In this document: positions 1-30,525 of the stretch, piece by piece
Layout of the letters: each line of letters opens with the position of its first letter
How positions within the stretch are numbered: position 1 is the first letter of the stretch
DNA from: Methylobacterium sp.
GTDB taxonomy: Bacteria; Pseudomonadota; Alphaproteobacteria; Rhizobiales; Beijerinckiaceae
Direction: 5' to 3'
Length of the DNA: 64,000 nucleotides
Assembly (NCBI GenBank): GCA_044227265.1
Contig: JBGAFL010000004.1
Span: 28,368-92,367, forward strand
Notes under the pieces: generated by a model
Databases searched by the model: none
The model's input: the letters and a program-made list of their open reading frames with translations, nothing else
What the model was told of the DNA's origin: nothing
Position numbers and translations under genes: made by a program

Positions 1-960
1 AAGCGCCAGACGGCCAACATGCTGCCGGGCTTCAAGGAGGTGCAGCCTGTCGTGTTCTGCGGCCTGTTCCCGGTCGATGCCGCCGAGTTCGAAAATCTGC
101 GCGGCGCGATGGGCAAGCTGCGGCTCAACGATGCCAGCTTCTCCTACGAGATGGAGACCAGCGCCGCGCTCGGCTTCGGCTTCCGCTGCGGCTTCCTCGG
201 ATTGTTGCACCTGGAAATCATCCAGGAGCGTCTGGAGCGCGAATTCAACCTCGACCTGATCTCGACCGCGCCATCGGTGGTCTACCGCCTGATGATGCGC
301 GACGGCGAGGTGAAGGAGCTCCACAACCCGGCCGACATGCCGGACCCGATGCGGATCGAGACGATCGAGGAGCCCTGGATCCGCGCCACCATCCTGACGC
401 CGGACGAATATCTCGGCGGCGTGCTGAAGCTCTGCCAGGATCGGCGCGGCGTGCAGATCGATCTCAACTATGTCGGCAAGCGCGCCATGGTGGTCTACGA
501 CCTGCCGCTCAACGAGGTGGTGTTCGATTTCTACGACCGGCTGAAATCGATCTCGAAGGGCTATGCCAGCTTCGATTACCACGTCTCCGATTACCGCGAG
601 GGCGACCTCGTGAAAATGTCGATCCTCGTGAACGCCGAGCCCGTCGATGCCCTCTCCATGTTGGTCCACCGCACCCGCGCCGAGGCGCGCGGCCGCGCCA
701 TGTGCGAGAAGCTCAAGGACCTGATCCCGCGCCACCTCTTCCAGATTCCGGTCCAGGCGGCGATCGGCGGCAAGATCATCGCCCGCGAGACCATCCGGGC
801 TCTGTCCAAGGACGTGACCGCGAAGTGCTATGGCGGCGACATCTCGCGCAAGCGCAAGCTTCTGGACAAGCAGAAGGAAGGCAAGAAGCGCATGCGGCAG
901 TTCGGCCGGGTGGAAATTCCGCAGGAAGCGTTCATTGCGGCGCTGAAGATGGACGATTGA
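1..960 (+). CDS. lepA: Translation elongation factor 4 (LepA), 5'-truncated at the window edge
   Basis: The frame is open from position 1. Contains [22 protein letters not shown] and the C-terminal [29 protein letters not shown], both LepA signatures. Confidence 0.98.
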
Positions 961-1006
961 ACGACACCAATGTGCGCCGCCTTCCTGCCGTGCTAGTCTT
1001 CCGAAC

Positions 1007-1300
1007 ATGGAACGATCCGCCGCCATCACGCGGCTGCGCAGCACGAGCGAGCGGCTTCACGAGGCCGGTATCCGCGCTCTCTATCTGTTCGGCTCCGTCG
1101 CCCGCGATGAGGCGGGGCAGCAAAGCGATGTCGATCTGTTCGTCGATCCTGATTACGAGCGTTTCGGCTTCGTCGAGCTCCTGCGCGCCGAGGCGATGCT
1201 GAGCGCCGAACTCGGCCGCCCGGTCGACCTGACGACCCGCGAGGGCCTGCATCCGCTTTTGCGCGCCAAGATCGAGAAAGACGCGATCCGCGTGCTGTGA
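1007..1300 (+). CDS. Minimal nucleotidyltransferase (MNT/MntA-like antitoxin)
   Basis: 97 aa with the LYLFGSVARDEA..SDVDLFVD motif (GSx10DxD). Overlaps the next ORF. Confidence 0.9.
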   Translation: MERSAAITRLRSTSERLHEAGIRALYLFGSVARDEAGQQSDVDLFVDPDYERFGFVELLRAEAMLSAELGRPVDLTTREGLHPLLRAKIEKDAIRVL

Positions 1301-1644
1301 TGAAGCGCTCGGTCGTCGCCCGCCTGCAGGATAGGCTGGACATGATCGACGCAGCGGCCGAGCTGATCGCTGGAGGCGACTTCGCGGCGTATCGATCCGA
1401 TCGCAAGCTGCGGCTGGCAATCGAGCGCTGCATCGAGATCGTGTCGGAGGCGAGCCGACATGTCCTGGCCGAGCAGAAGGCACGCTTTCCCGATATTCCC
1501 TGGCCGGAAACTGCCGCGATCGGCAACAAGCTTCGGCATGAATACAATCGCATCGACGATCTCATTCTGTGGCGTGTCGCAAGCCAATCGCTTCCCCAAT
1601 TGCGCCCGGTGATCGCGAGCATTCTGGCAGATGCGACCAATTGA
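1297..1644 (+). CDS. HEPN/DUF86 (HepT-like) toxin partner
   Basis: 115 aa with AIERCIEIVSEASR, IPW and IGNKLRHEY. Translationally coupled to the MNT gene. Confidence 0.88.
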   Translation: MMKRSVVARLQDRLDMIDAAAELIAGGDFAAYRSDRKLRLAIERCIEIVSEASRHVLAEQKARFPDIPWPETAAIGNKLRHEYNRIDDLILWRVASQSLPQLRPVIASILADATN

Positions 1645-2140
1645 GTTCTTGAAAGCGCATACTGACGCCTCCGCGCGCCACCGACGCCGGAGGTTTTTCT
1701 CACCGAAACAGGGGACGCGGGACGCCGTGAAGACCCTGATATCGTTCGAGCTCTGCGCTGCCGGTCTCCCCGGCGTCCCGCGATCGGACGGTCTGCACCG
1801 GCCGATCGATTTTTGCGTCACGGATTTCTTCGCTCGCGCACCTTCCGGCAGGTTCCGCCCCTCGTAGTGGGGACGGGCAGCGGATAAACCCGAGGCTCGG
1901 GCGGATCGCTCCGCCTTCGCCTCATCTCGGCACGAGCGCCCGGGGCGTGGACCGACCGAAGCCACGACGCGGGAGCCGCCTCACCGCCGCTGGGTCGACC
2001 CACGGTCGGTCCACCGCGGGGGCCCCCTGCTTGGTCAGCCCCGGATCGAGATCCGCGGCCGGCGACGAGCGGGAATTGGGTTAGCAGAACGCGCCTCATA
2101 TGTCAAGATTTATTTCCTATGTATTGAGATGCGAGACTCC

Positions 2141-2289: not shown

Positions 2290-5200
2290 TCATGCCTCGT
2301 CGGGCGCGAAGAGTTCGGCAATGTCGCACCTGACGGCCTCCGCCTCCTCCTCTCGCCCGAGCGCCGACAGGTATTCTGCGAGGTTGTGCATGGCAGCGAA
2401 GAGCTCGCGCGCGAAAGCGGCGGGATGTTCTCGACCCAACCCGCCGTACAGCTTGACGGATTCGAGTGCGGCAGCGAGCGCCGCCTCGCGACGGCCGAGA
2501 TCGGACAGCATGGTGCCGAAGTTGTTCAGGGACATCGCCAAATCGGGCGTGAATGAATCCGGGCGCGCCTTCGCCAGCGCGCGCATGATCTCGACAGCCT
2601 CCTGCGCCGCTTCCAACGCCGACTCGCGACGCCCGAGTTCGGACAGCCTGTTGCCGAGGTTGTTCAGGGACGAAGCCAGAGCGGGAGTGAAGGAATCCGG
2701 GCGCGCCATCGCCAGAGCGCGCCTGATCTCCACAGCCTCCTGTGCAGCCTCCAATGCCGACTCGCGCTGGCCAAGCTCGGACAGCCAATTGCTTAAGTTG
2801 TTCAGCGATGTCGCTAAATAGGGCACGAAGGCATCAGAGGACGCCTTCGCCAACGCGCGATATAGCCTCGTGGCTTCATGTCCGGCCTCCAACGCCGCCT
2901 CATGATAACCGAGCCCGGACAGCATCTTGCCAAGGTTGTTAAGTGAGGCGGCTAAATCCGGTGTGAAGGCATCCGGGCGCACGTTCGTCAGCGGGCGCCA
3001 AATCTCTACGGCCTCCCCAGTTGCCTCCAACGCCTCCTCGCGACGGCCTTGGTCGGACAGAAGGGCGCCAAGAGTGTTCAGCGACGACGCCAGATCCGGC
3101 GCGAATGCATCCGGGCGCGCCTTGGCCAGCGCGCGCCTGATCTTGACGGCCTCCCGCGCCACCTCCAAAGCCTCCTCACGACGGCCGAGATCGGACAGCA
3201 TCTTGCCCAGGCTGCTCAGTGACGTCGCCAAAACGGGCGCGAAGGCGTCAAGGCGCGCATTCGCCAGCACGTGCCCGATTTCGACAGCCTCCTGTGCGGT
3301 CTCCAACGCTGCCTCGCGACGACCGAGTTCAGACAGCATCTTGCTGAGATTGGTCAGGGACCCGGCCAAATAGGGCGTGAAGGAATCCGGGTGCGCCTTG
3401 GCCAGCGCGCGATAGAGTCCTGAAGCCTCCTGCGCCGCGTCCAACGCCGCCTCGCGACGGCCGAGATCAGACAGCATCTTGCCGAGGTTATTCAGGGATA
3501 TCGCCAGAGCGGGAGTGAAGGAATCCGGGCGCACTTCCGCGAGCGCCCGGCTGATCTCGACGGCCTCCTGCGCTGCTTCCAACGCCGCCTCAAGACGGCC
3601 GAGCAGCGACAAATAGTTCGCCGAATTATTCAGGAAGAGGGCGGCCTGCTCGGGATGGTCCTTCAGATCCACGCCGAGCCTCCCGGCTATCTCGGCAGCA
3701 AATCCCGCTGCGGCGAAAGGCACTTCGCCGCTCGCAACCTCCGCGAAATCGACAACCCGCTCCGGCTCGCGCTCGATCATCGCGATCAGTGCCGCCTCTA
3801 GCGGCGTCGCGCCGTTCCGGGCCACGCCCGGCGCATCGAGATCGTAGAGGAGGCGGCCGAGCCGATCGCCAAAATCCCGCTCGTTGCCCTTCAGCGAGAG
3901 CGAAAGCCAATGCGGCAGCCTGTCGTCACCGTCGGGGAGCTTCGCCTCGAACAAGGCCGCATCGAGAAAGCACGCCGCCACCCGGTCCGGCTGTAGCCGG
4001 ACCAGCCGCCCGCCGCGCCACCAGGGCGTCTCGGACACCACTTTCAGCAGGCGGTTCGCCTCGATTCCCTCGCCGATCCCAGCCTGCGCTAGCGCGCGGA
4101 CCGCAGCGAAATCGAGCCCTTCCGCGACGATGCCGAGCGCGAGCAGCCGCTCCAAGCTCGCCGGGCCGATGCCAAGGCGGTCCGAGGCCCGGCGCACGCG
4201 GCCGCGCTCGCGCTCGGCAAGATCGCGGATGATGGCGCCGCCCTCGATGCCGAAAGCCGCATCGGGGCTAAGCACCGCATGAACCGCGGCAGCCAGGACG
4301 AAAAGCGGCAGGCGGTGGAGCGTATTCTCCGAGGCCCAGGATTCCGCCCGCTCCAGATTCGGTAGTGGCAGGCAGGCTCGCCCGGCGAAGGTGGTCGCGG
4401 CCTCAGAGATCAGCGCGACCGCCTCGTCGGCATCGAGTGCATCCGGCGCAGCGATCGGATGCTTGCCGAAGCGGCCTCCGAGCGGCAGGGCCTCGTTCTC
4501 CCAATGCGCGAAATCCCTTCTGGAAAGGAGCAGCAGGCGGAGCGGGAAGGCCGATTGCTCCGCCTCAGTGAGTGCCGCGAACAGACGACGTGCCAGATCC
4601 GGGCTCTCCTCGGGATAATCGAGGATGAGCAGCAGGCCCCTCGCATCGCCGATCGGGACCTGCAGCGAGTGGCCCGGCCGCAGGAAACCGGCCGTCCAGC
4701 CGCGCCGTCGCAATTCGGCGGCAACCTCCGCCGCGAGCCGCGTCTTGCCGGCGCCGCCCTCGCCCGTGACGAGGCGGATGGAGGGCACGCCCGGTTTTGC
4801 CTCGGCCCAGGCGAGAATCTGCTTCAGATCGTCGTCGCGGCCATGCAGCTTCGTCGCCAGCCTGAAATTCCAGCGCAGGGCTGCGAGCAGGTCGATATCG
4901 TCTGGCGCAACCGCATCCGACAGCTCCCGCCAGCCGATCTCAAGCTCGGAGCGGGCCGGCTTCGCACCGGGGACGATGACCGAGAAGGAATCCTCGCCGA
5001 TTTCGACCGCGATGTCGGGGGCCTGTCTGGCCGCCTCGATCTTTTCGAGGATCGATCTCGTGTCCTCCCTGATCGCCTCTTGGCTGGCGATCACCGCCCC
5101 GATCTTCTGCTCGACGACCGTGACGGGACGCTCAAAAGGGTCGAGGATGAAAGCCTTTACCGACTTGTAGACCTCGTCGGCCCGGTTCGGGGGCTTGACG

Positions 5201-5898
5201 ATTGAGATATGGCCCTTGTCCAGCGGTTCGGCGGGATAGGCGACGAAGCCCGGATCGCCGCTTTCGGGATCGACGACATAGCCGAGGATACGGACAGGCT
5301 GCGATTCTCTGAGCACGAGGTGGTGCAGCCCGCGCGTCGTCGCCCATCTGCGGTAGTCGACATTCAGCTTCAGGAGGTTGGGATCGCGACGAAGGAGACA
5401 GCGTGTCGCCTCTGATGGCCAAACCAGGACCCGAAACCAATCACCCCATACCGCGTAATCGGAACCGGCATGCGGTGTTGCCAGGAAGGAGACCTTGTCC
5501 ACCCGGTCGAGGAAGCTCGCGGCCGCCTTGGAACTCTCCGCTTCCGCGACGAGATCGAGCAGCATGCGCTTGATGACGAGCCCGCCCAAGCTATGCCCGA
5601 TCAGGATCAGCCGCCCTTCCGCGAGTTTTGGTTCAGTCCTCAGGCTAAGGAAGACGTTGCGAGCCCTGTCGACGAGATGCATCGCCGTGCCACGCCACCG
5701 CGAGATCGCCGCCGGGTAGCCGACCGACCAGATCGCATGGCCCGGGATGTCTTCGGCGAGCCAAAGCGGCCACAGCGTCGCCTCGTCTCGGCGGTCCGCC
5801 TGCCAGGTCGTGCGGATGTTTCCGCCGAGGCCGTGGACGAAGACGACGTTCGTCGTCAGTTCCCCGCGGCTTTCGGCCAGGCATTCGAGTTCGGCCAT
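2290..5898 (-). CDS. NLR-like STAND protein: N-terminal alpha/beta-hydrolase (lipase-like), P-loop NTPase, C-terminal TPR array
   Basis: VVFVHGLGG and the GHSLGG nucleophile elbow at the N-terminus; Walker A GEGGAGKT; Walker B-like LLLILDYPE; about ten 46-aa TPR units at the C-terminus. Confidence 0.9.
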   Translation of the reverse strand: MAELECLAESRGELTTNVVFVHGLGGNIRTTWQADRRDEATLWPLWLAEDIPGHAIWSVGYPAAISRWRGTAMHLVDRARNVFLSLRTEPKLAEGRLILIGHSLGGLVIKRMLLDLVAEAESSKAAASFLDRVDKVSFLATPHAGSDYAVWGDWFRVLVWPSEATRCLLRRDPNLLKLNVDYRRWATTRGLHHLVLRESQPVRILGYVVDPESGDPGFVAYPAEPLDKGHISIVKPPNRADEVYKSVKAFILDPFERPVTVVEQKIGAVIASQEAIREDTRSILEKIEAARQAPDIAVEIGEDSFSVIVPGAKPARSELEIGWRELSDAVAPDDIDLLAALRWNFRLATKLHGRDDDLKQILAWAEAKPGVPSIRLVTGEGGAGKTRLAAEVAAELRRRGWTAGFLRPGHSLQVPIGDARGLLLILDYPEESPDLARRLFAALTEAEQSAFPLRLLLLSRRDFAHWENEALPLGGRFGKHPIAAPDALDADEAVALISEAATTFAGRACLPLPNLERAESWASENTLHRLPLFVLAAAVHAVLSPDAAFGIEGGAIIRDLAERERGRVRRASDRLGIGPASLERLLALGIVAEGLDFAAVRALAQAGIGEGIEANRLLKVVSETPWWRGGRLVRLQPDRVAACFLDAALFEAKLPDGDDRLPHWLSLSLKGNERDFGDRLGRLLYDLDAPGVARNGATPLEAALIAMIEREPERVVDFAEVASGEVPFAAAGFAAEIAGRLGVDLKDHPEQAALFLNNSANYLSLLGRLEAALEAAQEAVEISRALAEVRPDSFTPALAISLNNLGKMLSDLGRREAALDAAQEASGLYRALAKAHPDSFTPYLAGSLTNLSKMLSELGRREAALETAQEAVEIGHVLANARLDAFAPVLATSLSSLGKMLSDLGRREEALEVAREAVKIRRALAKARPDAFAPDLASSLNTLGALLSDQGRREEALEATGEAVEIWRPLTNVRPDAFTPDLAASLNNLGKMLSGLGYHEAALEAGHEATRLYRALAKASSDAFVPYLATSLNNLSNWLSELGQRESALEAAQEAVEIRRALAMARPDSFTPALASSLNNLGNRLSELGRRESALEAAQEAVEIMRALAKARPDSFTPDLAMSLNNFGTMLSDLGRREAALAAALESVKLYGGLGREHPAAFARELFAAMHNLAEYLSALGREEEAEAVRCDIAELFAPDEA
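2300..3660 (-). repeat. 138-bp tandem repeat array encoding 46-aa TPR units
   Basis: A ttgttcaggga-like anchor recurs at 2522, 2660, 2798, 2936, 3074, 3212, 3350, 3488 and 3626, an exact 138-bp period. Confidence 0.92.
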
Positions 5899-6094
5899 GC
5901 GTGCGCCACCGGGTCGCTCAACGGCCCCTTCATCGCGCCCGCAACCGGAGCGCGCAAGCCGGGTCGAGACGGAATTCAGTCCGAAGCGCGCGGCTTTGAA
6001 TCCTCGTCACACCTCGCGGCTCGGCCACCCATTCTCGACGCGGCGGCGTCGATCCCGTCGGGCCGCCGAACCCGCTGTGGTCTTTCGGACCGCA

Positions 6095-6119
6095 TGAACC
6101 TCTGCTGTGAGATAGCGTT
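6095..6119 (+). promoter_or_regulatory. Candidate EcfG (general stress response sigma factor) promoter
   Basis: TGAAC-N16-CGTT, one mismatch to the GGAAC-N16/17-CGTT consensus, ending 8 nt before the kaiC-like ATG. Confidence 0.5.
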
Positions 6120-6127
6120 ACCTCCGC

Positions 6128-7627
6128 ATGACGAAAACGGCAGAGAGTCCAGGCAAGGCCGCGACGGGTATCGACGGCCTCGACGACGTGCTGGGCGGCG
6201 GCCTCACCCGCCATCGCCTCTATCTGATCGAGGGCGATCCTGGCACCGGCAAGACAACGATCGCGCTGCAATTCCTGCTCGAAGGCGTCGCCAAGGGCGA
6301 AAAGGGCCTGCTCATTTCGCTGTCGGAGACCAGGCAGGAGATGATCGAGACCATGCACTCGCATGGATGGGAGATCGGCGACGGGCCGACGATCTATGAG
6401 GTGACGCCACCGGAAAGCCTGCTCGACGCCAACCAGCAGCAGAGTCTGCTTTATTCGTCCGATCTGGAACTGGGGGAGAGCACCAAGGCGATCTTCGAGG
6501 AGGTCGAGCGGGTCCAGCCGGTCCGCATCGTGCTGGACAGCCTGTCCGAGATCCGACTGCTCGCCGGCAACTCACTGCGGTATCGGCGACAAATTCTGGC
6601 GTTCAAGCATTATTTCGCTCACCGCGGCGCGACAATCCTGATGCTCGACGACCTGACAGCCGATGCGATGGACAAGTCGGTCCATAGCATCGCGCATGGC
6701 GTGATCCGGCTGGAGGAGATGGCGCCCACTTACGGCGCCGAGCGCAAGCGGCTGCGGGTCATGAAGTATCGCGGCCAGCGGTTTCGCGGCGGGTATCACG
6801 ATTTCACCATCGAGACCGGCGGCGTGCAGGTATTTCCCAGGCTCGTCTCACTCGAGCACAAGACGAGCTTCATCCGCGGCACCGTCAAGAGCGGCATCGC
6901 CGAACTCGATGCGCTGCTCGGCGGCGGAATCGAGACCGGATCGAGCACGTTGATCCTCGGACCGGCCGGCACCGGCAAATCGCTGTTCGCGATCCAATAT
7001 GCGACAGCTGCGATTGCTCGCGGCGAGCGCGCAGCGATCTTCATCTTCGACGAAGAACTCGGCCTTCTGCTGGAACGCTCGCGCACCATGGGCTTCGACC
7101 TTGCCGGGATGCGCGATCGCGGCCAGCTCCTGATCGAACAGGTCGATGCCGCGGAATTGTCGCCCGGCGAATTCACGCATCGTGTCCGCAAGGTCGTCGA
7201 CGGGGCCCAGGCCAAGACCGTCGTGATCGACAGCCTCAACGGCTACCAGGCCGCGATGCCGGAGGAGCGTGCGCTCATCCTGCACGTCCACGAACTTTTG
7301 CAATATCTCAATCGCCAGGGTGCCAGCACCTACGTGACGGTCGCTCAGCATGGTCTCGTCGGCGACATGAAATCGCCAGTCGACGTCACCTATCTCGCCG
7401 ACACCGTGGTCCTCTTGCGCTATTTCGAGGCCCTCGGCTCGGTGCGGCGGGCGATCTCGATCGTCAAGAAGCGCACCGGCGAGCACGAGGACACGATCCG
7501 GGAGTACCGCATCACCAATGCCGGCCTGCGCGTCGGAGAGCCGTTGAAGGGCTTCCAAGGCATCTTGCGCGGCGTTCCATCGCTTCTGCAAAGCGAGGCC
7601 TCGCTCATACCGGCCAAGGCCGGCTGA
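6128..7627 (+). CDS. KaiC-like / RAD55-family double-domain ATPase
   Basis: Two RecA-type domains with Walker A motifs GDPGTGKT and GPAGTGKS. Begins TGIDGLDDVLGGG; the second domain contains YLADTVVLLRY. Confidence 0.93.
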   Translation: MTKTAESPGKAATGIDGLDDVLGGGLTRHRLYLIEGDPGTGKTTIALQFLLEGVAKGEKGLLISLSETRQEMIETMHSHGWEIGDGPTIYEVTPPESLLDANQQQSLLYSSDLELGESTKAIFEEVERVQPVRIVLDSLSEIRLLAGNSLRYRRQILAFKHYFAHRGATILMLDDLTADAMDKSVHSIAHGVIRLEEMAPTYGAERKRLRVMKYRGQRFRGGYHDFTIETGGVQVFPRLVSLEHKTSFIRGTVKSGIAELDALLGGGIETGSSTLILGPAGTGKSLFAIQYATAAIARGERAAIFIFDEELGLLLERSRTMGFDLAGMRDRGQLLIEQVDAAELSPGEFTHRVRKVVDGAQAKTVVIDSLNGYQAAMPEERALILHVHELLQYLNRQGASTYVTVAQHGLVGDMKSPVDVTYLADTVVLLRYFEALGSVRRAISIVKKRTGEHEDTIREYRITNAGLRVGEPLKGFQGILRGVPSLLQSEASLIPAKAG

Positions 7628-7637
7628 TCGGCGCTCC

Positions 7638-8726
7638 GTGACGCTTCCGGGCAACCCCGTCTCCGAACGGATCCTGATCCTGGCGCCCCATGGCAGGGAT
7701 GCGAAGCTGGCGGCAGGATTGTTCGCGGAAGCGAAACTGCCTGCCTTGATCTGCGAGGATATCGATGCCGTCCGGCGCGGCCTGGAGCAGATGGCCGGAA
7801 TGGTCATCCTGACCGAGGAATCGGTCCGCACGGCGGATCTGTCGAGCATCCGGGAATGGATCGCGATGCAGCCGACTTGGTCGGACATGCCGTTCGTGGT
7901 CCTGATTGGCCATGGTGGCGGCGTCGAGCGCAATCCGGCGGCCGCCCGGCTCTCTCAGGTTTTCGGCAACACGACCTTTCTGGAGCGACCCTTTCATCCG
8001 ACGACACTGATCAGCGTCGCGCAGACGGCCTTGCGCGGGCGCCGGCGGCAATACGAAGCGCGCTCGCGCCTCGAAGAACTCCGGCTCGGGGAATCGAGAC
8101 TCAAGATCGCGCTCGCAGCCGAAAAAGTCGCGGCGCAGCACCAGCGCCTCTTGATCGACGAACTCAATCATCGCGTGAAGAACACGCTCGCCACGGTCCA
8201 GTCGATCGCGATGCAGACCTTGCGCAATGCCGAGACGACCGAACTCGCCAAAGACGCGCTGGAAATGCGCCTGCTCGGCCTCTCGCGGGCGCATGACGTG
8301 CTGACGCGCGAGAACTGGGACGGGGCCGACCTCAATGACGTGGTCGCCCAGGCCATTGCACCTTTCCGAGACCGTGATGGGCGTCGCTTCCTTTGCGAGG
8401 GACCGGATGTGCGGCTCAACCCGCGCATGTCGCTCGCGATCGCGATGGCCTTGCAGGAACTGGCGACCAACGCCGTCAAATACGGCGCTCTCTCCAGCGC
8501 GACCGGAACCGTTTCGATCGGTTGGACCATCAGCCGCGATAATGAACCCGAAGAGTTGCATTTTTGCTGGCGCGAAAGAGGTGGTCCGCCAGTGACACCG
8601 CCATCCCGGCGCGGCTTCGGCTCGCGCCTGATCGAGCGAAGCCTCGCCCGAGACCTCGACGGCGTGGTCTCTATCACCTTCGAACCATCGGGAGTCTTCT
8701 GCAGAATCAAGGCGCCGTTGTCGTGA
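7638..8726 (+). CDS. HWE/HisKA_2-family sensor histidine kinase with a degenerate N-terminal receiver-like domain
   Basis: H-box ELNHRVKNTLATVQSIA, ELATNAVKYGALS, WRERGGPPV and GFGSRLI. Starts 10 nt after the kaiC-like gene. Confidence 0.92.
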   Translation: MTLPGNPVSERILILAPHGRDAKLAAGLFAEAKLPALICEDIDAVRRGLEQMAGMVILTEESVRTADLSSIREWIAMQPTWSDMPFVVLIGHGGGVERNPAAARLSQVFGNTTFLERPFHPTTLISVAQTALRGRRRQYEARSRLEELRLGESRLKIALAAEKVAAQHQRLLIDELNHRVKNTLATVQSIAMQTLRNAETTELAKDALEMRLLGLSRAHDVLTRENWDGADLNDVVAQAIAPFRDRDGRRFLCEGPDVRLNPRMSLAIAMALQELATNAVKYGALSSATGTVSIGWTISRDNEPEELHFCWRERGGPPVTPPSRRGFGSRLIERSLARDLDGVVSITFEPSGVFCRIKAPLS

Positions 8727-8746
8727 ACCTCGGGGGCCGCCCGGTG

Positions 8747-8876
8747 GACGCATCCTCCGCTCTCCACCTCAACCAGAGGCGCCGAAGCGCAGCGAAGGCC
8801 TCCAAGGAGGACTCCAGCAGGCAATGCGCTGGCGGAAGGATTCCTTCGAGGCGCTGACGCGGCACCTCAGGATGAA
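8747..8876. repeat. REP-like palindromic element
   Basis: gacgcatcctc...gaggcgccgaagcgcagcgaaggcctccaaggagg ... tccttcgaggcgctgacgcggcacctcaggatga; inverted-repeat architecture between convergent genes. Confidence 0.6.
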
Positions 8877-8927
8877 TGGGAGGAGTTGGAGGAGCAAGCG
8901 CAAACCGAATTGAGATCGAATTCTAGC

Positions 8928-10403
8928 TCACGCGGCGGCGAGCGGCTTCGAGACCTCCTCCAGAGATTTGCCTTCGGCCGCCGTGCCCCAGATCCCGCCG
9001 ACGATCGCGGCAAGGCCCATCAGCGTCGCGCCCAGCAGATAGCCGCCGAAGACCCAGTCGCGCGAACCGGTCTCGACCAGCGTCCCGAACAGCAGAGGCC
9101 CCGAAACGCCGCCGATTCCCGTGCCGATCGCGTAGAAGGCGGCGATAGCGAGCGCACGGATCTCCAGCGGGAAGGTCTCGGCGACGGTGAGATAGGCCGA
9201 GCTTGCGGCGGCGGAGGCGAAGAAGAACACCACCATCCACACGGCGGTCTGCTCGACTGGCCCGAACAGGCCGATCTTGAACAGGTAGCCGGCGCCTGCG
9301 AGCAGCAGGGCCGAGATGCCGTAGGTGGCTGCGATCATGGGCCGGCGCCCGACCGTATCGAACAGACGCCCGAGCAGCACCGGCCCAAGGAAGGAGCCCA
9401 GCGCGAAGGGCAGCAGGTACCAGCCGACATGGCCGCCGGGCACCTCGTAGAAGCGCTGCAAAACCAGGGCATAGGTGAAGAACAGGGCATTGTAGAAGAA
9501 GGCCTGCGCGATCATCAGCGTAAGGCCGACGAGCGTCTGCTTGCGGCTCGACACGAACATCGCATCGGCCACCTGCGCGAGCGGGGTGCGGTCGCGCGTC
9601 CTGATCTTGTAGCTTTTGCCCGGATCGACCGGCGGCAGTTCGATGCCGCTCTCGGTGAAGCGCTTCTCGATGCCGCTCACCACGCGATCCGCTTCGGCGA
9701 CGTAGCCATGCGTCACGAGCCAGCGCGGGCTCTCGGGAATCCAGCTGCGCAGCAGCAGGATGACGAGCCCGATGCTGCCGCCGACAAAGAAAGCGATGCG
9801 CCAGCCATAGGTCGGATCGATCCATTCGGGGCGCAGCAGCGCGATCGACAGGAACGAGCCGAGCGCGGCCCCGATCCAGAACGAACCATTGATGACGAGA
9901 TCGGTCCAGCCGCGCACCCGCGCCGGCACCAGTTCCTGGATCGTCGAATTGATCGCCGTGTATTCGCCACCGATCCCCGCACCGGTGAGGAAGCGGAAGA
10001 TGCAGAAGCTCCAGATGTTCCAGGACAATCCGGTCGCGGCGGTGGCGGCGAGGTAGAGGAACAGGGTGATGAAGAACAGCTTCTTGCGCCCGATCCGGTC
10101 GGTGAGCCAGCCGAAGCCGAGTGCGCCGAGCACGGCGCCGACGAGATAGGAGCTTGCGGCAAGCCCGACATCGAATTCGGAGAACGACATCGGCGGCTGG
10201 CGCAAAGCTCCCACCAAGGAGCCGGCGAGCGTCACCTCCAGCCCGTCGAGCACCCAGGTGATCCCGAGCGCCACGATGACGAGGACGTGGAAGCGGCCCC
10301 AGGGCAGGCGGTCGAGCCGGGCGGATATGTCGGTATCGACGATCGTCCCCAGCGGTACACGCTCCGGCGTACCCGTTCCCTGCCCTTCGACCCGTGTCGA
10401 CAT
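8928..10403 (-). CDS. MFS transporter (sugar/aromatic acid:H+ symporter-like)
   Basis: About 12 hydrophobic segments; motif A GWLTDRIGRKK, GAGIGGEY and AETFPLEIRA. Confidence 0.93.
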   Translation of the reverse strand: MSTRVEGQGTGTPERVPLGTIVDTDISARLDRLPWGRFHVLVIVALGITWVLDGLEVTLAGSLVGALRQPPMSFSEFDVGLAASSYLVGAVLGALGFGWLTDRIGRKKLFFITLFLYLAATAATGLSWNIWSFCIFRFLTGAGIGGEYTAINSTIQELVPARVRGWTDLVINGSFWIGAALGSFLSIALLRPEWIDPTYGWRIAFFVGGSIGLVILLLRSWIPESPRWLVTHGYVAEADRVVSGIEKRFTESGIELPPVDPGKSYKIRTRDRTPLAQVADAMFVSSRKQTLVGLTLMIAQAFFYNALFFTYALVLQRFYEVPGGHVGWYLLPFALGSFLGPVLLGRLFDTVGRRPMIAATYGISALLLAGAGYLFKIGLFGPVEQTAVWMVVFFFASAAASSAYLTVAETFPLEIRALAIAAFYAIGTGIGGVSGPLLFGTLVETGSRDWVFGGYLLGATLMGLAAIVGGIWGTAAEGKSLEEVSKPLAAA

Positions 10404-21347: not shown

Positions 21348-21716
21348 CTAATTCAGTTTCTTCTCAATCACATCGAACTCCATGTGAATGATCGGGTGAA
21401 TCCAGCAGCGGACTATAACATGACCTGCCTTCTTCATCACGGTGGATTTTTGAGTGCCGGGGGGTTGGGTATTGAGCGTTTCGACCGTTCCATCTTCGAA
21501 AGTAAGGTAGAGATTGTGAGCGATGTCAGCATGGTTCGAGAAGACCACGGTGTCACCGACCGCAGGCTCGGCGCCCGTCTCATGCGCCTCGAGATGCTCG
21601 ATCACGATCTCGACCGTTGCGGCACGTGCCAGCGGCACTGGGGCGATGGCGAGTGCAAGCATGGCAAAAGCAGTGCCTAGAGCGAACGAACGGCCCATTC
21701 GAAGATCCATCCTCAT
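21348..21716 (-). CDS. mauL: Small exported cupredoxin-fold protein at the mauL position
   Basis: Signal peptide, GDTVVFSN, AHN and CWIHPIIHM; located between mauG and mauM. Confidence 0.65.
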   Translation of the reverse strand: MRMDLRMGRSFALGTAFAMLALAIAPVPLARAATVEIVIEHLEAHETGAEPAVGDTVVFSNHADIAHNLYLTFEDGTVETLNTQPPGTQKSTVMKKAGHVIVRCWIHPIIHMEFDVIEKKLN

Positions 21717-22795
21717 GGCAGCACCGGCAGCGAGACCGGCATCGGCTCGGCGGCGAGCGTTTCCAGGAAGGCAACGAGGTCTCGGCGCTCACGTTCGCTG
21801 AGTTCGACAGACTTCATCTCGAAGGACAGGCTCGGCCGCTTCTCACCGCCCTTCGCGTAATGCTCGATCACCGCATCGATCGTGTGCAACTGGCCGTCAT
21901 GCATGTACGGACCTTGCAGCCGCAGATCCCGAAGCGACGGCGTCTTGAAGGCGTTCTGCATGGCGACGACGCTTGGCGGCGCGAACTTGCCGCGGCCAAG
22001 ATCTTCGCTCGCTTTCAATCCGATGTCGTGAAAGCTGTCGTCGCTGAAGCGCCAGGAGGAGTGGCAGGCCGAGCAGTGCGCCTTGCCGGTGAACAGCGCG
22101 AAGCCGCGCTTTGCCTCGGAGCCGATCGCCGAATCCTCGCCCTCAACCCATCGGTCGAACGGCGACTTTCCCGAGACGAGCGTGCGCTGAAAGGTCGCGA
22201 GCGCTGCGGTGACGTTCTTCTGGTTGATCGGATCCTCACCGCCGAAGGCCGCCTGGAAAAGCGGCGCATAGCCCGGAACGGCTTTTAGTCTCTCGACGAC
22301 GAGATCCATCGTCATATTCATCTCGTCCGGCGCAGTGATCGGCATTTTCGCTTGCGCCTCCAGTGAGGGCGCGCGCCCGTCCCACTGGAACGCCGCGCCC
22401 CAAGCCATGTTGCGCACGTGCGGGGTCCTCCGCGCCAGCGGCGCCATGCCGAACCCGACCGCCTTGGCCAATCCGTCCGACCAGCCGAAGCTCGGGTTGT
22501 GGCAGGTGCCGCAGGACATGCTGCCGGAGCGCGACAGCCGCGGATCGAAGAACAGGGCCTTCCCGAGTTGCTCTTTCTCCAGCGAATGCGGATTCGATCT
22601 AGGAAAAGGAATGCCCTCTGGTCGGCGGAATTTCTGCTTCAGCCCCGCGAGATCGGCGGCCGAAAGCCCCTCGATCGCATTGTTATCATTGGTCGCGTCG
22701 CCGGGGCCGATCACGACCCCATAGGAGAGGCAGCCGACGGCAACGAACCAAGCGATGAGAGTACGTGTCCCGAGAATGGGTTCCAACATTTTCAC
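21713..22795 (-). CDS. mauG: MauG, di-heme TTQ biosynthesis enzyme
   Basis: LGKALFFDPRLS, two CxxCH motifs (CGTCH, CSACH), QWDGRA and FKTPSLR; located in the mau operon. Confidence 0.93.
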   Translation of the reverse strand: MKMLEPILGTRTLIAWFVAVGCLSYGVVIGPGDATNDNNAIEGLSAADLAGLKQKFRRPEGIPFPRSNPHSLEKEQLGKALFFDPRLSRSGSMSCGTCHNPSFGWSDGLAKAVGFGMAPLARRTPHVRNMAWGAAFQWDGRAPSLEAQAKMPITAPDEMNMTMDLVVERLKAVPGYAPLFQAAFGGEDPINQKNVTAALATFQRTLVSGKSPFDRWVEGEDSAIGSEAKRGFALFTGKAHCSACHSSWRFSDDSFHDIGLKASEDLGRGKFAPPSVVAMQNAFKTPSLRDLRLQGPYMHDGQLHTIDAVIEHYAKGGEKRPSLSFEMKSVELSERERRDLVAFLETLAAEPMPVSLPVLP

Positions 22796-22821
22796 CTTGT
22801 CGGTCGAAAGAGCGCTCTCCC

Positions 22822-23712
22822 TCAGGAAGCGACCGCCATGTCCGCAGCTTGCCGGTCGGCGATCTCGAGCAGCAGCACTTCGCGCGCAGCGTAATCGGCA
22901 AGGCTCGCCATCGGCGCGAGCCGCGCCGACGCGTTCGTCTCGCCGGCATCGACCGAGTGGAATCCGGGGGCTTCGAGCTCCCGCAACGTTTCGTTCCGCA
23001 CCTTTTCGAGTGTTTCGATGAGGACTGCGAACGGTTGATTTTCAAGTTCCCGCGCAGAGGTCAGCGCCCCGCTATGGACAAGCATGTCCAGGCGCACCGT
23101 CCGCATCGCCTGGTGCGGGCCACGCGAGAACGGCGGGCTGCCCTCGCGCCAGAGCTTCAGCACCGCGAAGGCGTTCAGCAGCCGCCAAGCCGAATCTGAG
23201 GCGTTGCGGGCACGCTGGTAGAGCCGGAACACGGGCTTCATGTCGTCGGGGACGAACGCCACCGTCTCGAGGTCGAGATCGAGCGCACTCGGCCGGAACG
23301 GCAGGCAGCGCCAGCGCGCATCGTTTGCCGGATCGGCGAGGCGCCAACCTGCGATCGCCATGCCGCGGCCGAGTTGCAGCGTCCAACGGGCGAGACGGTC
23401 ATCGAGGTCACGTCGGCTGGCAGCCAAAGCCGCGAACGGATCGCGACACGTGAGCCGATAGATGATCTCGTTGAGCTTGCCGGCCTCATTGCCGTAGAAG
23501 GCGATGATGGCCGGCATGCCCTCGATCGTCTCGTTCAGGACATCACCCAACGCATTGGCGCGGATGTCGATTTCCCAGGCCAGCGTAATCGGATTCCTCA
23601 CAAAGAAGCCGACCATGACGTTGCGCTCGGATCGATCGGCCTTCGATGCCTCGATGGACGATGCCGGCGTCTCGGCCTTGATCGACTCCCTCAAATCATA
23701 TGGAATCCACAT
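22822..23712 (-). CDS. mauJ: Methylamine utilization protein MauJ
   Basis: MWIPYDLR N-terminus recalled for MauJ; located between amicyanin and mauG. Confidence 0.82.
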   Translation of the reverse strand: MWIPYDLRESIKAETPASSIEASKADRSERNVMVGFFVRNPITLAWEIDIRANALGDVLNETIEGMPAIIAFYGNEAGKLNEIIYRLTCRDPFAALAASRRDLDDRLARWTLQLGRGMAIAGWRLADPANDARWRCLPFRPSALDLDLETVAFVPDDMKPVFRLYQRARNASDSAWRLLNAFAVLKLWREGSPPFSRGPHQAMRTVRLDMLVHSGALTSARELENQPFAVLIETLEKVRNETLRELEAPGFHSVDAGETNASARLAPMASLADYAAREVLLLEIADRQAADMAVAS

Positions 23713-23737
23713 CGGTTTGACCTCGGTCTCGTGACGG

Positions 23738-24094
23738 CTATTCCACCGTGACCTTGCCCTTCATGAAGGGGTGCGGGGTGCAGACGTAATTGTAGGTTCC
23801 GGGTGTGTTGAACTTGACGGAATAGGTCTCGTTGGAGCGCAACATCGGACCTTCGACGTCCTTCTCGAGCCCAGCACCGGCCTTGAAATGCACGTTGTGC
23901 GGCAAGGGCTCGGTGTTGATCCAGGTCACGGTCGAGCCGCTCTTCACGGTCACGTCCGGTGTCTGGAACTTCATCTTGGCGATTTTGATCTCGGTGCCTC
24001 CGGACGCGCCGGTCACGACCTCGATCGCGTCGGCGGCCAATACGGGCCCGAGGGGGGCGACGACGAGCGCCGCCGCGAGCAGGATGGAACGCAT
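23738..24094 (-). CDS. mauC: Amicyanin (type-1 blue copper electron acceptor of MADH)
   Basis: Signal peptide, PHNVHF and YVCTPHPFM (His, Cys, His, Met ligands). Confidence 0.95.
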   Translation of the reverse strand: MRSILLAAALVVAPLGPVLAADAIEVVTGASGGTEIKIAKMKFQTPDVTVKSGSTVTWINTEPLPHNVHFKAGAGLEKDVEGPMLRSNETYSVKFNTPGTYNYVCTPHPFMKGKVTVE

Positions 24095-24195
24095 GAGAGA
24101 TTCTCCGAGTAAGGGCGCGCGAGCCGGCGATCAGGCGAAAGGCTGGTATTCCGTCCGCGACTTGACTGACGGGATACGTCTCACGTGTTCTTCGG

Positions 24196-24225
24196 CGTCA
24201 TGGCCGGGACAGCCCGGCCATGACG
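24196..24225. terminator. Perfect 13-bp-stem hairpin between mauA and mauC
   Basis: CGTCATGGCCGGG-ACAG-CCCGGCCATGACG. Confidence 0.6.
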
Positions 24226-24260
24226 GTGGAAGCCGACGCGACACTTGGTGGCTGACGGAG

Positions 24261-24818
24261 CTAGGCCTTCCCTATGATCGGGGAGATCGTGCAGTGATAG
24301 GTCATGGCGTCGTCTTCGGCGCCGAAGCACCAGATGACGTCATTGCCGAATTCGGGACGGTAGACCGGCAGCTCACCTTCCGTGTTCAGGCAGCCGCAGC
24401 GGTTCGACATGTTCCGGCCGCAGCAATCCCGGTACGAGATCAGATAGCTCTGCTTGTCGGTCGGGTTGTAGCAGCTCGCGACCCAAGAGCTCGAGGCGAG
24501 CTTGGTGCCGGGCGGGCAATTGGTGAGTGAGCCGCCTGCGCAATCGCAGATGTTGCCGTCGATCGAGCAGTGCCGCCAGTAATCGCAGGCCTGGATGTCG
24601 TTGTCCTGCGGGGCCCACTTGGCACGTGGATCGCCGGCGGCCGAGGCGGCATTGGCGCGGCTGACGCGGCCACGCCGGTCGACCGGCAGGAGCGGCACCA
24701 GGGCCACGCCCGCTACCGCGGTACCCACGCGGCCTATGAAGCCGCGGCGGCTGGTATGTCCTGCCACCTTGCGTGACAGCTTTTCGAACATCTCGTCGAA
24801 ATGGGATTTGCCGAGCAT
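24261..24818 (-). CDS. mauA: Methylamine dehydrogenase light (TTQ) chain
   Basis: Tat leader SRRGFIG, CDYWRHCSIDG, YRDCCG and NDVIWCFG (both TTQ Trp residues present). Confidence 0.98.
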   Translation of the reverse strand: MLGKSHFDEMFEKLSRKVAGHTSRRGFIGRVGTAVAGVALVPLLPVDRRGRVSRANAASAAGDPRAKWAPQDNDIQACDYWRHCSIDGNICDCAGGSLTNCPPGTKLASSSWVASCYNPTDKQSYLISYRDCCGRNMSNRCGCLNTEGELPVYRPEFGNDVIWCFGAEDDAMTYHCTISPIIGKA

Positions 24819-24876
24819 CTTATACCCCATCGTTTATTGGGTTGCGTGAGTGTGGAGGGACCTGGCGGCGCCGCTT

Positions 24877-25494
24877 TCAGGCGGCGATTGCGCCCTGGTC
24901 CTTTTTCCGGCTGGTCATGAACTGCTGGATGGAGGCGAAGCCGCTCTTGTCCGCCTCGAGGAGGCTTTCGAGATGCTCGCGGGTATTGGTCAGGCCCTTG
25001 GAACGGATCACCCCGTCCGAATCCAGGAAGACGCCGTAGGGGATCTTGCCGACCTGGAATTTCATGCCGACCTCGGCCGAGACGACGTAGCGGATGTCGC
25101 CGAGTTCGTGTTTGGCGAGGAAGCGCTCGTGCTCGTCGGGCTGGCCGTCGCTGATCATCACGACCGAGACCTTCTCGGCTTTGGAGATCGACTTGATCAG
25201 CGGAAACAGCTTGTCGCAGACCGGGCAGCTCGGTGCCGTGAACATCAGCAGCGTTGCCCGTTTCTGGGGATTCGGCCCGCCGATGCGCAGGTTCGCCCCG
25301 AAATGATCGGGAATGTCGAAGCTCGGGGCGAGATCGCCGATCTCCGGCCCGTGATCGGTGATCATCGCGCCCATCGGCGAGGAACGCTCGTGCAGCAGGC
25401 CGACCTGACGAAGGACACCGAGCATGACGACGGTGACGCCGATCAGGGCCAACCAGAGCAATACGTTGGATGCAATGAGGAATTGCGTCGCCAT
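24877..25494 (-). CDS. mauD: MauD, thioredoxin-like MADH accessory protein
   Basis: N-terminal TM, LLHERSSPMGAM, CPVC and VGKIPY; 205 aa. Confidence 0.95.
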   Translation of the reverse strand: MATQFLIASNVLLWLALIGVTVVMLGVLRQVGLLHERSSPMGAMITDHGPEIGDLAPSFDIPDHFGANLRIGGPNPQKRATLLMFTAPSCPVCDKLFPLIKSISKAEKVSVVMISDGQPDEHERFLAKHELGDIRYVVSAEVGMKFQVGKIPYGVFLDSDGVIRSKGLTNTREHLESLLEADKSGFASIQQFMTSRKKDQGAIAA

Positions 25495-25499
25495 CGGCG

Positions 25500-28881: not shown

Positions 28882-28917
28882 TAAGCAAGCTTCAACGCTT
28901 TCGCGCGTTTTAATATT

Positions 28918-30449: not shown

Positions 30450-30525
<76 letters not shown>

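Follow-up and report, generated by a model that had tools for sequence, protein, structure and literature searches.

A putative NLR-like receptor of Methylobacterium sp. that joins a predicted lipase-like esterase to a STAND NTPase and a ten-unit TPR array

Described systems and the gene in the window

According to current descriptions of the Avs proteins (e.g., Avs1-5 and Avs7-21; PMC13581612), one polypeptide carries a swappable N-terminal effector, a STAND module and a C-terminal TPR-like sensor, and the binding of a phage protein through that sensor leads to oligomerisation. A 2026 catalogue comprises 589 STAND clades. Fungal SesB-like/NB-ARC/TPR NLRs and bacterial BASS-motif NLR-like proteins (Dyrka et al. 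2014, 2020; Wojciechowski et al. 2022) combine an alpha/beta-hydrolase effector with an NOD and TPR_10-type repeats of high internal similarity; their effector repertoire includes PNP_UDP, CHAT, TIR-like and short matching motifs, and 'all-in-one' and two-gene forms coexist. In the NLRs of ascomycete fungi, SesB-like and PNP_UDP domains are among the commonest N-terminal domains, at 13-14% each. Bacterial 'all-in-one' proteins of the alpha/beta-hydrolase-NOD-repeat type have also been mentioned (Dyrka et al. 2020, bioRxiv 10.1101/2020.01.06.895854).

Alpha/beta-hydrolases are cell-killing defence effectors (PMC12642450), and amyloid-coupled pairs lead to abortive infection (bioRxiv 10.1101/2024.11.07.622273). 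In type VIII retrons, the reverse transcriptase is paired with a serine esterase ('DUF626', i.e., DUF676; Mestre et al. 2020, PMC7736814; PADLOC PDLC02918), and the caspase-activated LcHydrolase zymogens (Evans et al. 2025, PMC12642450) provide an alpha/beta-hydrolase killing output that is coupled to sensors, including STAND-linked modules.

The gene described here lies in a stretch of 64,000 nucleotides from Methylobacterium sp. (the window), where it forms a single real ORF with an ATG start. Its sequence suggests a bacterial counterpart of the eukaryotic NLR receptors, with a lipase-like serine esterase, a STAND ATPase and a ten-unit TPR array in one chain. The GC contents of the three codon positions (0.71/0.48/0.79) are typical of coding sequence in this genome (64% GC). 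Because the N-terminus aligns with those of the homologues, the start codon is considered to be right. The homologues number 201 at E<=1e-3, and the nearest full-length one is 61% identical; in a related strain from activated sludge, the esterase-coding part is approximately 96.5% identical, and 13 of the 21 listed substitutions fall at third codon positions. The ORF, its motifs and the TPR array far exceed chance expectation. An initial annotation, which named no strand, had described a 1202-aa protein with an effector-STAND-TPR layout and had quoted its motifs, and both statements are borne out: the ORF is single, each motif could be located, and the domain matches recover all three parts. 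The features, with residue numbers of the protein, are as follows.

2290..5898, minus strand: whole coding sequence, 1202 aa and stop codon (stop 2290-2292); ORF list, codon-position GC, 201 homologues
5128..5853, minus strand: predicted alpha/beta-hydrolase, DUF676-class serine esterase, residues 16-257; Pfam, PADLOC, AF2, Foldseek
5821..5835, minus strand: HGLGG oxyanion-hole motif, residues 22-26; H22, G23 and L24 in 61/64 relatives
5581..5598, minus strand: GHSLGG nucleophile elbow, residues 101-106; Ser103 codon 5590-5592
5254..5256, minus strand: Asp215, most likely the catalytic acid; D215 in 61/64, alternatives Glu212 and Glu198
5209..5211, minus strand: His230, predicted catalytic histidine; conserved in 62/64, behind the final core strand in the model
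4885..5127, minus strand: helical linker from esterase to NTPase, residues 258-338; AF2 secondary structure, long helix 261-292
3937..4884, minus strand: predicted STAND NTPase (nucleotide-binding, helical and winged-helix-like parts), residues 339-654; Pfam, AF2, Foldseek
4741..4764, minus strand: Walker A GEGGAGKT, residues 379-386 (Lys385); its G, G, G, K and T unchanged across 52 relatives
4606..4635, minus strand: Walker B variant LLLILDYPEE, residues 422-431; Asp427 invariant, Y428/P429/E430/E431 at least 90% conserved (52 relatives)
4516..4542, minus strand: LRLLLLSRR, strand and Ser-Arg-Arg, residues 453-461; S459 and R460 nearly invariant, after the fourth strand of the model
4303..4317, minus strand: HRLPL, residues 528-532; P531 and L532 nearly invariant
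3658..3936, minus strand: helical spacer from NTPase to repeats, residues 655-747; all-helical in the AF2 model
2293..3657, minus strand: ten 46-residue TPR_10/TPR_12 units, putative sensor, residues 748-1202; Pfam, TRF, unit register

Esterase, NTPase and repeats

The N-terminal alpha/beta-hydrolase with its HGLGG and GHSLGG motifs, which the initial annotation had already named, is supported by Pfam, Foldseek and residue conservation. DUF676 was matched at 27.7 bits (cut-off 20.3), and PGAP1 remained below its cut-off on the protein (19.1 vs 24.3). The AF2 model of the domain (pLDDT 86.6) yielded 477 PDB matches at E<=1e-3 with Foldseek, and the best 50 of the 477 are all alpha/beta-hydrolases; lipases, esterases and the Legionella phospholipase PlaB are among the matches, with E-values alike across many esterases. 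Ser103 is kept in 63 of 64 aligned rows, the remaining row being a gap, and the model places it between strand 96-102 and helix 104-119. As for the other candidate acids, D stands at position 212 in 59/64 (this protein has E), and E198 is found in 62/64. From the conserved Ser103/Asp215/His230 set, the domain is predicted to be a catalytically intact DUF676-type esterase.

The best match in a defence library was the PADLOC model DUF626_VIII of the type VIII retron serine esterase (1.1e-28), with residues 16-257 aligned to model positions 10-240 of 474. However, the retron enzyme is a stand-alone partner, whereas the window esterase shares its chain with a STAND-TPR body; no reverse transcriptase was found among the window neighbours of the gene, and the Rfam search gave no match except for two distant tRNAs and no retron ncRNA nearby. 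LcHydrolase likewise stands alone as a protein and is licensed through two proteolytic cuts, whereas the window hydrolase is fused to its switch and involves no protease. The putative link between SesB and the window esterase is their common membership in the DUF676/AB_hydrolase clan. The nearest solved structure by identity is PlaB (PDB 6zti/6zth; approximately 20%, rmsd of approximately 4 A over approximately 205 columns). PlaB is a phospholipase A under nucleotide-binding control, but it is virulence-associated and has its own C-terminal domain, without STAND or TPR. Its activity is controlled by the oligomeric state.

The esterase subfamily is also found on IMG/VR contigs, once in fusion to another P-loop NTPase with a large helical C-terminus, and its fusion partners include at least four other, unrelated P-loop types. 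The commonest architecture in the subfamily is esterase and TPR without any P-loop; therefore, the esterase does not need a STAND switch. The linker between esterase and NTPase differs in length and sequence among the homologues.

For the NTPase, AAA_16 scored 34.8 bits (cut-off 32.6) when residues 339-654 were scanned alone and 30.6 bits, just under that cut-off, on the full protein. Among 12 relatives, AAA_16 was matched by all 12 and nSTAND5 by 10; the relative P0128 matches nSTAND5 at 43.4 (cut-off 34). No NACHT or NB-ARC match was found in the window protein with Pfam; among the relatives, a weak NPHP3_N match occurred in only 2/12, and NB-ARC at E of approximately 5e-3 in only 2/12. A profile of the NTPase searched against PDB sequences gave nothing beyond P-loop-level matches. 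The AF2 model (pLDDT 93.3) has EfAvs5, tomato NRC1/2/3, MalT, SAMD9 and CED-4 as its top Foldseek matches (E 4e-5 to 1e-3); the matches have TM values of 0.3-0.4 and modest E-values (1e-5 to 1e-3), with ORC/Cdc6 and clamp-loader AAA+ proteins interleaved.

Because Asp427 is invariant and the YPEE residues are so highly conserved across the relatives, we take the atypical Walker B for a property of the family rather than an error. The order of the motifs in STAND proteins suggests that LRLLLLSRR provides a sensor-1-like arginine, and HRLPL may correspond to the GxP/GLPL motif in the helical domain of STANDs. In the winged helix, the histidine that STANDs usually have is replaced by Q/K/R/E/A ahead of the invariant Pro637. 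Profile and model point to a divergent STAND of the AAA_16/nSTAND5 type, as which we provisionally class the domain. The Walker A and atypical Walker B of the initial annotation hold across the 52 relatives, and its proposed check of whether the NTPase would model as a STAND leans in its favour, through the AAA_16 score of the domain alone, the nSTAND5 matches of 10 of 12 relatives and, at modest E-values, the Foldseek matches to Avs5, NRC, MalT and CED-4.

The C-terminal repeats match TPR_10 (3e-53) and TPR_12 (6e-38). The unit is 46 aa, neither 34 nor 42, and the ten units have a mean pairwise identity of 62%; at the DNA level, TRF reported a period of 138 nt at 2479-3603 (8.2 copies, 73% matches). 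The annotated TPR array is therewith confirmed as a set of repeats, and its role as a sensor is putative.

Module exchange and genomic neighbourhood

In relatives, the same NTPase and TPR chassis occurs with other N-termini, namely, PNP_UDP_1, CHAT and DUF4062. The PNP_UDP_1 and CHAT modules match PADLOC effector models, and the DUF4062 module matched none. Elsewhere, the N-terminus on the chassis is a short motif, which recurs in an adjacent upstream two-helix membrane protein; the effector position of such sister proteins, which lack the hydrolase, recruits a membrane protein. Module swapping is a hallmark of NLR effectors, and the exchange of N-terminal modules supports the effector-NOD-sensor reading.

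Compared with Avs, the protein shares the layout in one polypeptide and the swappable effectors, and EfAvs5 is the best structural match of its NTPase. It differs in several respects. With PADLOC-DB v2, the NTPase and sensor parts matched no Avs or other model, the esterase alone being matched, which agrees with the initial annotation that this is not a named Avs type. Avs sensors are irregular and enveloping, whereas the window sensor is a regular, kinesin-light-chain-like 10 x 46-aa TPR_10/12 array; the effector is a DUF676 esterase, and we found no functional study of that effector in Avs. Moreover, the window gene is not known to lie in a defence island. The parallel drawn earlier with fungal SesB is apt and is reinforced by the relatives with PNP_UDP, CHAT or motif-only N-termini, although the window NOD is neither NB-ARC nor NACHT by Pfam, and the host belongs to the unicellular Alphaproteobacteria, in which NLR-like architectures are reported to be scarce. 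The novelty had been overstated, however, given the alpha/beta-hydrolase-NOD-repeat proteins of bacteria already on record in the 2020 preprint of Dyrka et al.

The neighbours in the window encode LepA, MntA, HepT, a KaiC-like protein and an HWE kinase. The MntA/HepT toxin-antitoxin pair lies directly beside the receptor gene, and its MntA matches PADLOC PDC-S09. Six neighbourhoods were inspected, of the window gene and of close relatives of either module. Defence hints were found in two of these six, a sample too small for statistics: the MntA/HepT pair in the window and, in B. indica, a ThsB-like TIR gene at a distance of 2 kb from the relative. Four of the six are housekeeping neighbourhoods without a defence island.

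Proposed function, alternatives and meaning

We believe that the gene product is probably a single-chain NLR-like (STAND) sensor-effector of a system for biological conflict or regulated cell death. By analogy with Avs, bNACHT and the fungal NLRs, the nucleotide-bound NTPase and the TPR array would keep the resting protein monomeric and the esterase off. The array would bind a ligand that comes from an invader or is induced by infection; binding would open the NTPase, allowing NTP to bind and the protein to oligomerise, and the esterase domains thus clustered would become active. They would then cut an ester-linked cell component, most plausibly a membrane phospholipid or another lipid, and growth arrest or cell death would follow before the invader spreads.

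It is rather unlikely, though worth weighing, that the protein is such a conflict-system NLR with an esterase that is not membrane-lytic and instead targets a protein, peptide or small-molecule ester; it might, for example, deacylate or process a second component or a signal. Its trigger might be something other than a phage, such as a plasmid, a toxin, kin recognition or stress. Peptides and small esters are further substrates of alpha/beta-hydrolases, and thioesterases, kynurenine formamidase and aryl esterases are found among the Foldseek matches of the domain, with E-values in the same range. However, characterised DUF676/PGAP1-type enzymes are lipid esterases, PlaB is among the best structural matches with the highest identity (20%), and the sister proteins recruit a membrane protein to the effector position. 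On the other side, in favour of this alternative, the one studied defence alpha/beta-hydrolase effector has no known substrate and has oligopeptidases among its HHpred neighbours (PMC12642450), and fungal SesB-type NLRs serve allorecognition, not virus defence. Even less probable is a housekeeping or regulatory STAND, that is, an NTP-switched, TPR-scaffolded esterase for lipid or envelope turnover or stress signalling without an immune role. The gene occupies a core chromosomal site between lepA and the KaiC-like/HWE-kinase pair and is adjacent to lepA in Methylobacterium sp. Leaf118 too, its GC content is in line with that of the surroundings, low-depth metatranscriptome contigs suggest basal expression, and many STAND clades are not involved in defence (PMC13581612). 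Yet the LepA proteins of the window and Leaf118 share 97% identity, whereas the receptor at the same position is just 61% identical, which is not housekeeping-like; the neighbour on the far side differs between the two strains, and two relatives have a split or frameshifted copy of the receptor gene. Also against a housekeeping role are the N-termini swapped on the chassis and the sharing of the esterase subfamily with retron VIII partners and viral contigs.

We consider it very improbable that the esterase domain acts as an integrated sensor or decoy, with the output coming from the oligomerised NTPase/TPR body or an unlinked partner. Plant NLRs do carry integrated decoys, DUF676 is reportedly among the integrated domains in surveys of plant NLRs, and no partner gene would be required. 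However, the complete catalytic set and the oxyanion motif are present in >95% of the relatives, the esterase holds the N-terminal slot that known killing modules take in sister proteins, and no conserved partner gene lies beside the hydrolase-bearing members in the neighbourhoods inspected.

We tentatively raise a further possibility, itself less likely than not. Unicellular Alphaproteobacteria may possess an NLR family, defined by the AAA_16/nSTAND5-like NTPase with its LDYPEE Walker B, whose members have two interchangeable routes to the membrane. The first may be the direct fusion of a DUF676 lipase-like esterase, of which the window gene would be an example. In the other, the short, beta-rich N-terminal motif may template the same motif in the small upstream protein, where it may lie within the loop between the two transmembrane helices; this would be a membrane-embedded effector of the amyloid type, unlike the helical Bell/Bab domains.

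The protein would extend NLR-like architectures to unicellular Alphaproteobacteria through an NOD that NACHT and NB-ARC profiles miss; therefore, surveys using those two profiles would under-count such proteins. What SesB-like hydrolases cleave and how the cells die is a gap in the field, as it is for the alpha/beta-hydrolases of bacterial defence (PMC12642450). Because the esterase is covalently joined to its switch and sensor, and its sister proteins carry well-understood effectors, the family may be a convenient system for studying substrate and activation logic. If the two-way reading is true, the window gene would be the bacterial equivalent, in 'all-in-one' form, of the SesB/NLR pair in fungi, and its family would be a tractable bacterial model for SesB-type hydrolases in NLR-controlled cell death.

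Domain organization of the putative receptor gene

The receptor gene is a single open reading frame:

2290-5898, minus strand: receptor gene, ATG start, 1202 codons

Its codon-position GC content (0.71/0.48/0.79) follows the coding pattern of a genome of approximately 64% GC, and the start codon is considered correct because the N-terminus aligns residue for residue with the N-termini of the homologues. The motifs listed in the initial annotation were all recovered, namely, HGLGG (residues 22-26), GHSLGG (101-106), GEGGAGKT (379-386) and LLLILDYPEE (422-431), and the long C-terminal TPR array that it described was likewise borne out; the strand and the size of the repeat unit are additions. 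The unit measures 46 residues (138 nt) and occurs in ten copies (residues 748-1202). TRF reports 8.2 strongly periodic copies with 73% DNA matches; compared pairwise as protein, the core units share 62% identity on average and up to 83%. In a metatranscriptome run (X18) and in an activated-sludge DNA run (X5), contigs link window position 2674 directly to 3503 across an identical overlap of 30 nt, leaving out 828 nt, the length of exactly six TPR units of 138 nt. Either related strains differ here in repeat number, or the repeats collapsed during k-mer assembly. The esterase-coding part is approximately 96.5% identical in a related activated-sludge strain, and 13 of the 21 substitutions printed for it fall at third codon positions, which indicates purifying selection on the reading frame. 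Evidence of transcription comes only from contigs of low depth, in one metatranscriptome and in one run with an ambiguous label; these contigs hint at basal transcription and are not taken as proof of expression.

Residues 18-148 match the Pfam family DUF676, "putative serine esterase" (27.7 bits against a cut-off of 20.3), with PGAP1 below threshold. A much stronger match was obtained in the PADLOC library, in which residues 16-257 correspond to PDLC02918, "DUF626_VIII" (1.1e-28), a serine esterase encoded beside type VIII retron reverse transcriptases (Mestre et al., 2020; PMC7736814); an LmuA (Lamassu) match in the same scan (E = 0.029) was too weak for use. The AlphaFold2 model of residues 1-300, built on 64 relatives, has a pLDDT of 86.6 and the canonical strand order of an alpha/beta-hydrolase, and a helical insertion of lower confidence at residues ~140-190 may form a lid. 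Foldseek returned 477 PDB matches at E<=1e-3, and the best 50 of the 477 are all alpha/beta-hydrolases, led by a lipase-esterase-related protein (3e0x), yeast YDR428C, the peroxisomal lipase Lpx1 and the Legionella phospholipase PlaB; the last has the highest identity among the matches listed (20%, rmsd ~4 A, ~205 columns). In the 64 aligned relatives, Ser103 is conserved in 63, His230 in 62, Asp215 in 61 and Glu198 in 62, and position 212, which is Glu in the window protein, is Asp in 59. Because the serine, the histidine and an acid are conserved, the esterase looks catalytically competent; Asp215, Glu198 and Glu212 are all candidates for the triad acid, Asp215 being the most likely.

The initial annotation took the NTPase to be a STAND domain, and the Pfam profiles and the predicted fold are in keeping with this reading. 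The Pfam family AAA_16 scores 30.6 in the full-length receptor, just below the cut-off of 32.6, and 34.8 when residues 339-654 are scanned alone. Among 12 diverse relatives, AAA_16 was matched in 12, nSTAND5 in 10 and ATPase_2 in eight, with weak NB-ARC or NPHP3_N matches in only two, and one relative exceeds the nSTAND5 cut-off outright (43.4 vs. 34). The motifs follow one another as in STAND proteins: Walker A, an hhhhD Walker B, a hydrophobic strand leading to S-R-R (453-461), a conserved "A-P..L...E/D-A..L" stretch, and HRLPL (528-532), which by its position appears to take the place of the GxP/GLPL motif. The Walker B previously described as atypical (LILDYPE) is present, and since the Y-P-E-E that follows the Walker B Asp is at least 90% conserved across 52 relatives, it is a family signature. 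The AlphaFold2 model of residues 320-750 is confident (pLDDT 93.3, pTM 0.91), and its best PDB structure matches are EfAvs5 (SIR2-STAND), tomato NRC1/2/3, MalT, SAMD9 and CED-4, with ORC/Cdc6 proteins and AAA+ clamp loaders scattered among them, at E-values of 4e-5 to 1e-3 and a TM of only 0.3-0.4. A PDB sequence search with the whole receptor matched only kinesin-light-chain TPRs, and one with the trimmed NTPase profile matched nothing beyond the P-loop level (ArsA, RFC, RuvB). By Pfam profile, the domain is neither NACHT nor NB-ARC. Based on the Pfam profiles and the predicted fold, we conclude that the NTPase is a putative STAND domain of a divergent clade without a solved close relative.

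A search of 1.84 billion cluster representatives matched 205 of them with E-values up to 1e-30 and 609 with values up to 1e-10, so that this is a genuine family, though not a large one. When 185,579 species genomes were scanned, the single receptor protein gave no match, and alignment A2 recovered at least 14 distant relatives, mostly from Actinomycetota and Chloroflexota among the matches listed.

Exchange of N-terminal modules

The relatives found in the homology searches (P-numbers) carry different N-terminal modules on the same NTPase and TPR body, hereafter the chassis:

P0002-P0010 and P0079: esterase
P0196: PNP_UDP_1 phosphorylase, which also matches a PADLOC effector model
P0246: CHAT caspase-like protease, matching PADLOC SAVED_CHAT
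P0022: DUF4062

Some relatives of the chassis have no N-terminal module, and in others, here called motif-type, a G/N/Q/V/I-rich motif of 30-45 residues stands in place of the esterase. Conversely, the esterase module occurs elsewhere at 45-58% identity, fused to other P-loop types (GLRGVGKT, GLGGVGKT, GEPGSGKS, GGEGCGKS) and to an NB-ARC. Its most frequent fusion is to TPRs without a P-loop (P0041-P0115), and so the esterase-TPR combination evidently can work without a STAND switch, to judge from these architectures. The commonest architecture of the subfamily consists of the esterase, ~300 non-P-loop residues and TPR_10 repeats, 700-880 aa in total, with no NTPase. IMG/VR contigs carry the module as well, in one case joined to an unrelated P-loop and a 900-residue helical C-terminus:

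L026:2562-6416, IMG/VR viral contig: esterase-NTPase-helical fusion, 1284 aa, PADLOC DUF626_VIII 2.8e-47, P-loop AAPGSGKT

This protein appears to be a second, unrelated esterase-NTPase-sensor design. In fungal and bacterial NLRs, SesB-like hydrolase, PNP_UDP, CHAT, TIR-like and amyloid motifs occupy one position, and the recombination of chassis and esterase appears to match this combinatorial pattern. We believe that this modularity is the strongest argument for an effector-NOD-sensor reading of the putative receptor.

In all four motif-type loci that were opened, a small gene lies 4-22 bp upstream of the receptor:

L004:5734-5991 and 6001-8478: small gene and motif-type receptor
L006:5718-5996 and 6001-9384: small gene and motif-type receptor
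L023:2251-2991 and 3001-5499: small gene and motif-type receptor
L024:2721-2978 and 3001-5472: small gene and motif-type receptor

The product of the small gene has two hydrophobic helices, and the loop between them carries a motif similar to that of the receptor (GNFAQRVRGDVTQ with GNFAIGVEGNVTQ in L006; NTGFSVFGAVTQ with NFGISVFGGIDQ in L024). A shuffle test found significance for two of the four pairs (the observed score was reached in 0 and 1 of 1000 shuffles) and none for the other two. Amyloid signalling drives abortive infection in E. coli (bioRxiv 10.1101/2024.11.07.622273), where the partner is a helical Bell-type domain, whereas in the motif-type loci the NLR would seem to signal, by an amyloid-type mechanism, to a membrane hairpin and not to a Bell/Bab domain.

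Genomic setting

The window derives from a bioreactor metagenome, and its host sequence is a methylotroph chromosome containing a methylamine dehydrogenase (mau) cluster and a PQQ dehydrogenase. The relevant features are as follows:

19-1644, plus strand: lepA-MntA-HepT, one flank of the receptor gene
1007-1300 and 1297-1644, plus strand: MntA-type nucleotidyltransferase and HepT (HEPN) RNase, overlapping by 4 bp
6128-7627 and 7638-8726, plus strand: double-domain KaiC-like ATPase and HWE histidine kinase, the other flank, divergent from the receptor
21713-27313 and 38977-40932: methylamine utilisation cluster (MauG-like di-haem peroxidase, MauE, methylamine dehydrogenase heavy chain), plus PQQ-dependent dehydrogenase

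MntA and HepT form a toxin-antitoxin pair, an insertion that separates lepA from the receptor gene, and MntA matches the PADLOC candidate family PDC-S09 (2e-22). The KaiC-like/HWE pair, probably a stress or timing module of the KaiC type, is unlikely to be connected with the receptor, and a promoter scan of the 229-bp divergent region between the receptor and the KaiC-like gene gave nothing useful. Downstream of the receptor, region 1644-2290 contains one terminator-like hairpin (1789-1804, plus strand) and no open reading frame with a coding GC3 pattern or a Pfam match; no partner gene was found. The flanking genes scanned include no reverse transcriptase, protease, integrase or transposase. 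A mobile island or horizontal-transfer signature within +/-10 kb was rejected because GC and GC3 match the neighbours and neither an integrase nor a transposase was found among these genes. A retron hypothesis was also rejected; with no reverse transcriptase or ncRNA nearby, the receptor is not a retron system. Farther away, a low-GC stretch (0.55) at 28-30 kb (28000-30525) with an HTH-cupin regulator and unannotated ORFs abuts tRNA-Lys (30450-30525) and is possibly a small island.

The closest full-length homologue, from Methylobacterium sp. Leaf118, is 61% identical and likewise convergent with lepA, whereas the LepA proteins of the two genomes are 97% identical. The Leaf118 locus lacks the MntA/HepT pair, and its far-side neighbour differs. 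Either the receptor evolves far more rapidly than the genes around it, or the site is a hotspot at which genes are replaced. Other relatives occur as single genes in housekeeping surroundings, and one lies 2 kb from a ThsB-like TIR gene; the six neighbourhoods inspected around close relatives offer at best a suggestion of a link with defence genes. Two soil-metagenome relatives are each split into two ORFs inside the TPR region (L021:8001-10797, 679+256 aa; L022:3242-6689, 1004+125 aa), the result of a frameshift, of pseudogenisation or of misassembly within the repeats. A ParBc_2 gene lies downstream on both contigs.

Proposed mechanism and alternatives

As read from sequence and models, the domain order, the intact catalytic and nucleotide-binding residues, the predicted STAND-type fold, the repeat array and the module swapping are established features of the receptor. 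By analogy with Avs proteins (PMC13581612), bNACHT proteins and fungal NLRs, it would work like an Avs or NLR: the TPR array would bind a ligand, the NTPase would then exchange nucleotide and oligomerise, induced proximity would switch on the esterase, and the esterase would destroy an ester-linked component, leading to cell arrest or death. We consider the probable function to be that of an NLR-like device for conflict or cell death whose output is the esterase. Within this reading, the specific anti-phage membrane lipase proposed in the initial annotation is less probable and is advanced only tentatively. Characterised DUF676/PGAP1 enzymes are lipid esterases; because of this, the structural neighbour PlaB, and the membrane protein recruited in the sister loci, a lipid or membrane would be our best guess for the target. 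One studied defence alpha/beta-hydrolase effector kills cells and has no known substrate (PMC12642450), and a device of the same NLR-like kind acting on a non-lipid substrate, answering a non-phage trigger, or both, is a less likely account that nevertheless deserves consideration.

The core-genome location of the gene would suit a housekeeping NTP-switched esterase, an explanation we regard as improbable given the identity of 61% for the receptor vs. 97% for LepA in Leaf118, the apparently pseudogenised relatives, and the effector swapping on the chassis. That the esterase is an integrated decoy or sensor is very improbable, as its catalytic residues are conserved near-universally.

The architecture class of this putative NLR-like device is already in print. 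Kaur et al. (2020) listed alpha/beta-hydrolases among the effectors of NTP-dependent conflict systems, Dyrka et al. (bioRxiv 10.1101/2020.01.06.895854) described the same domains also as "all-in-one" proteins with NOD and repeats in bacteria, and Lee et al. (2026; PMC13581612) catalogued 589 STAND clades. By the tests made, the receptor lies outside the named Avs, bNACHT and NB-ARC families, in agreement with the earlier remark that it is not a named Avs type. NLR-like proteins have been reported to be rare in unicellular Alphaproteobacteria. What is new is modest: a specific clade in these bacteria, with a NOD invisible to NACHT and NB-ARC profiles, and a DUF676 esterase that the receptor has in common with retron VIII partners. 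The most interesting by-product of the analysis is the set of matched-motif pairs with two-helix membrane proteins.
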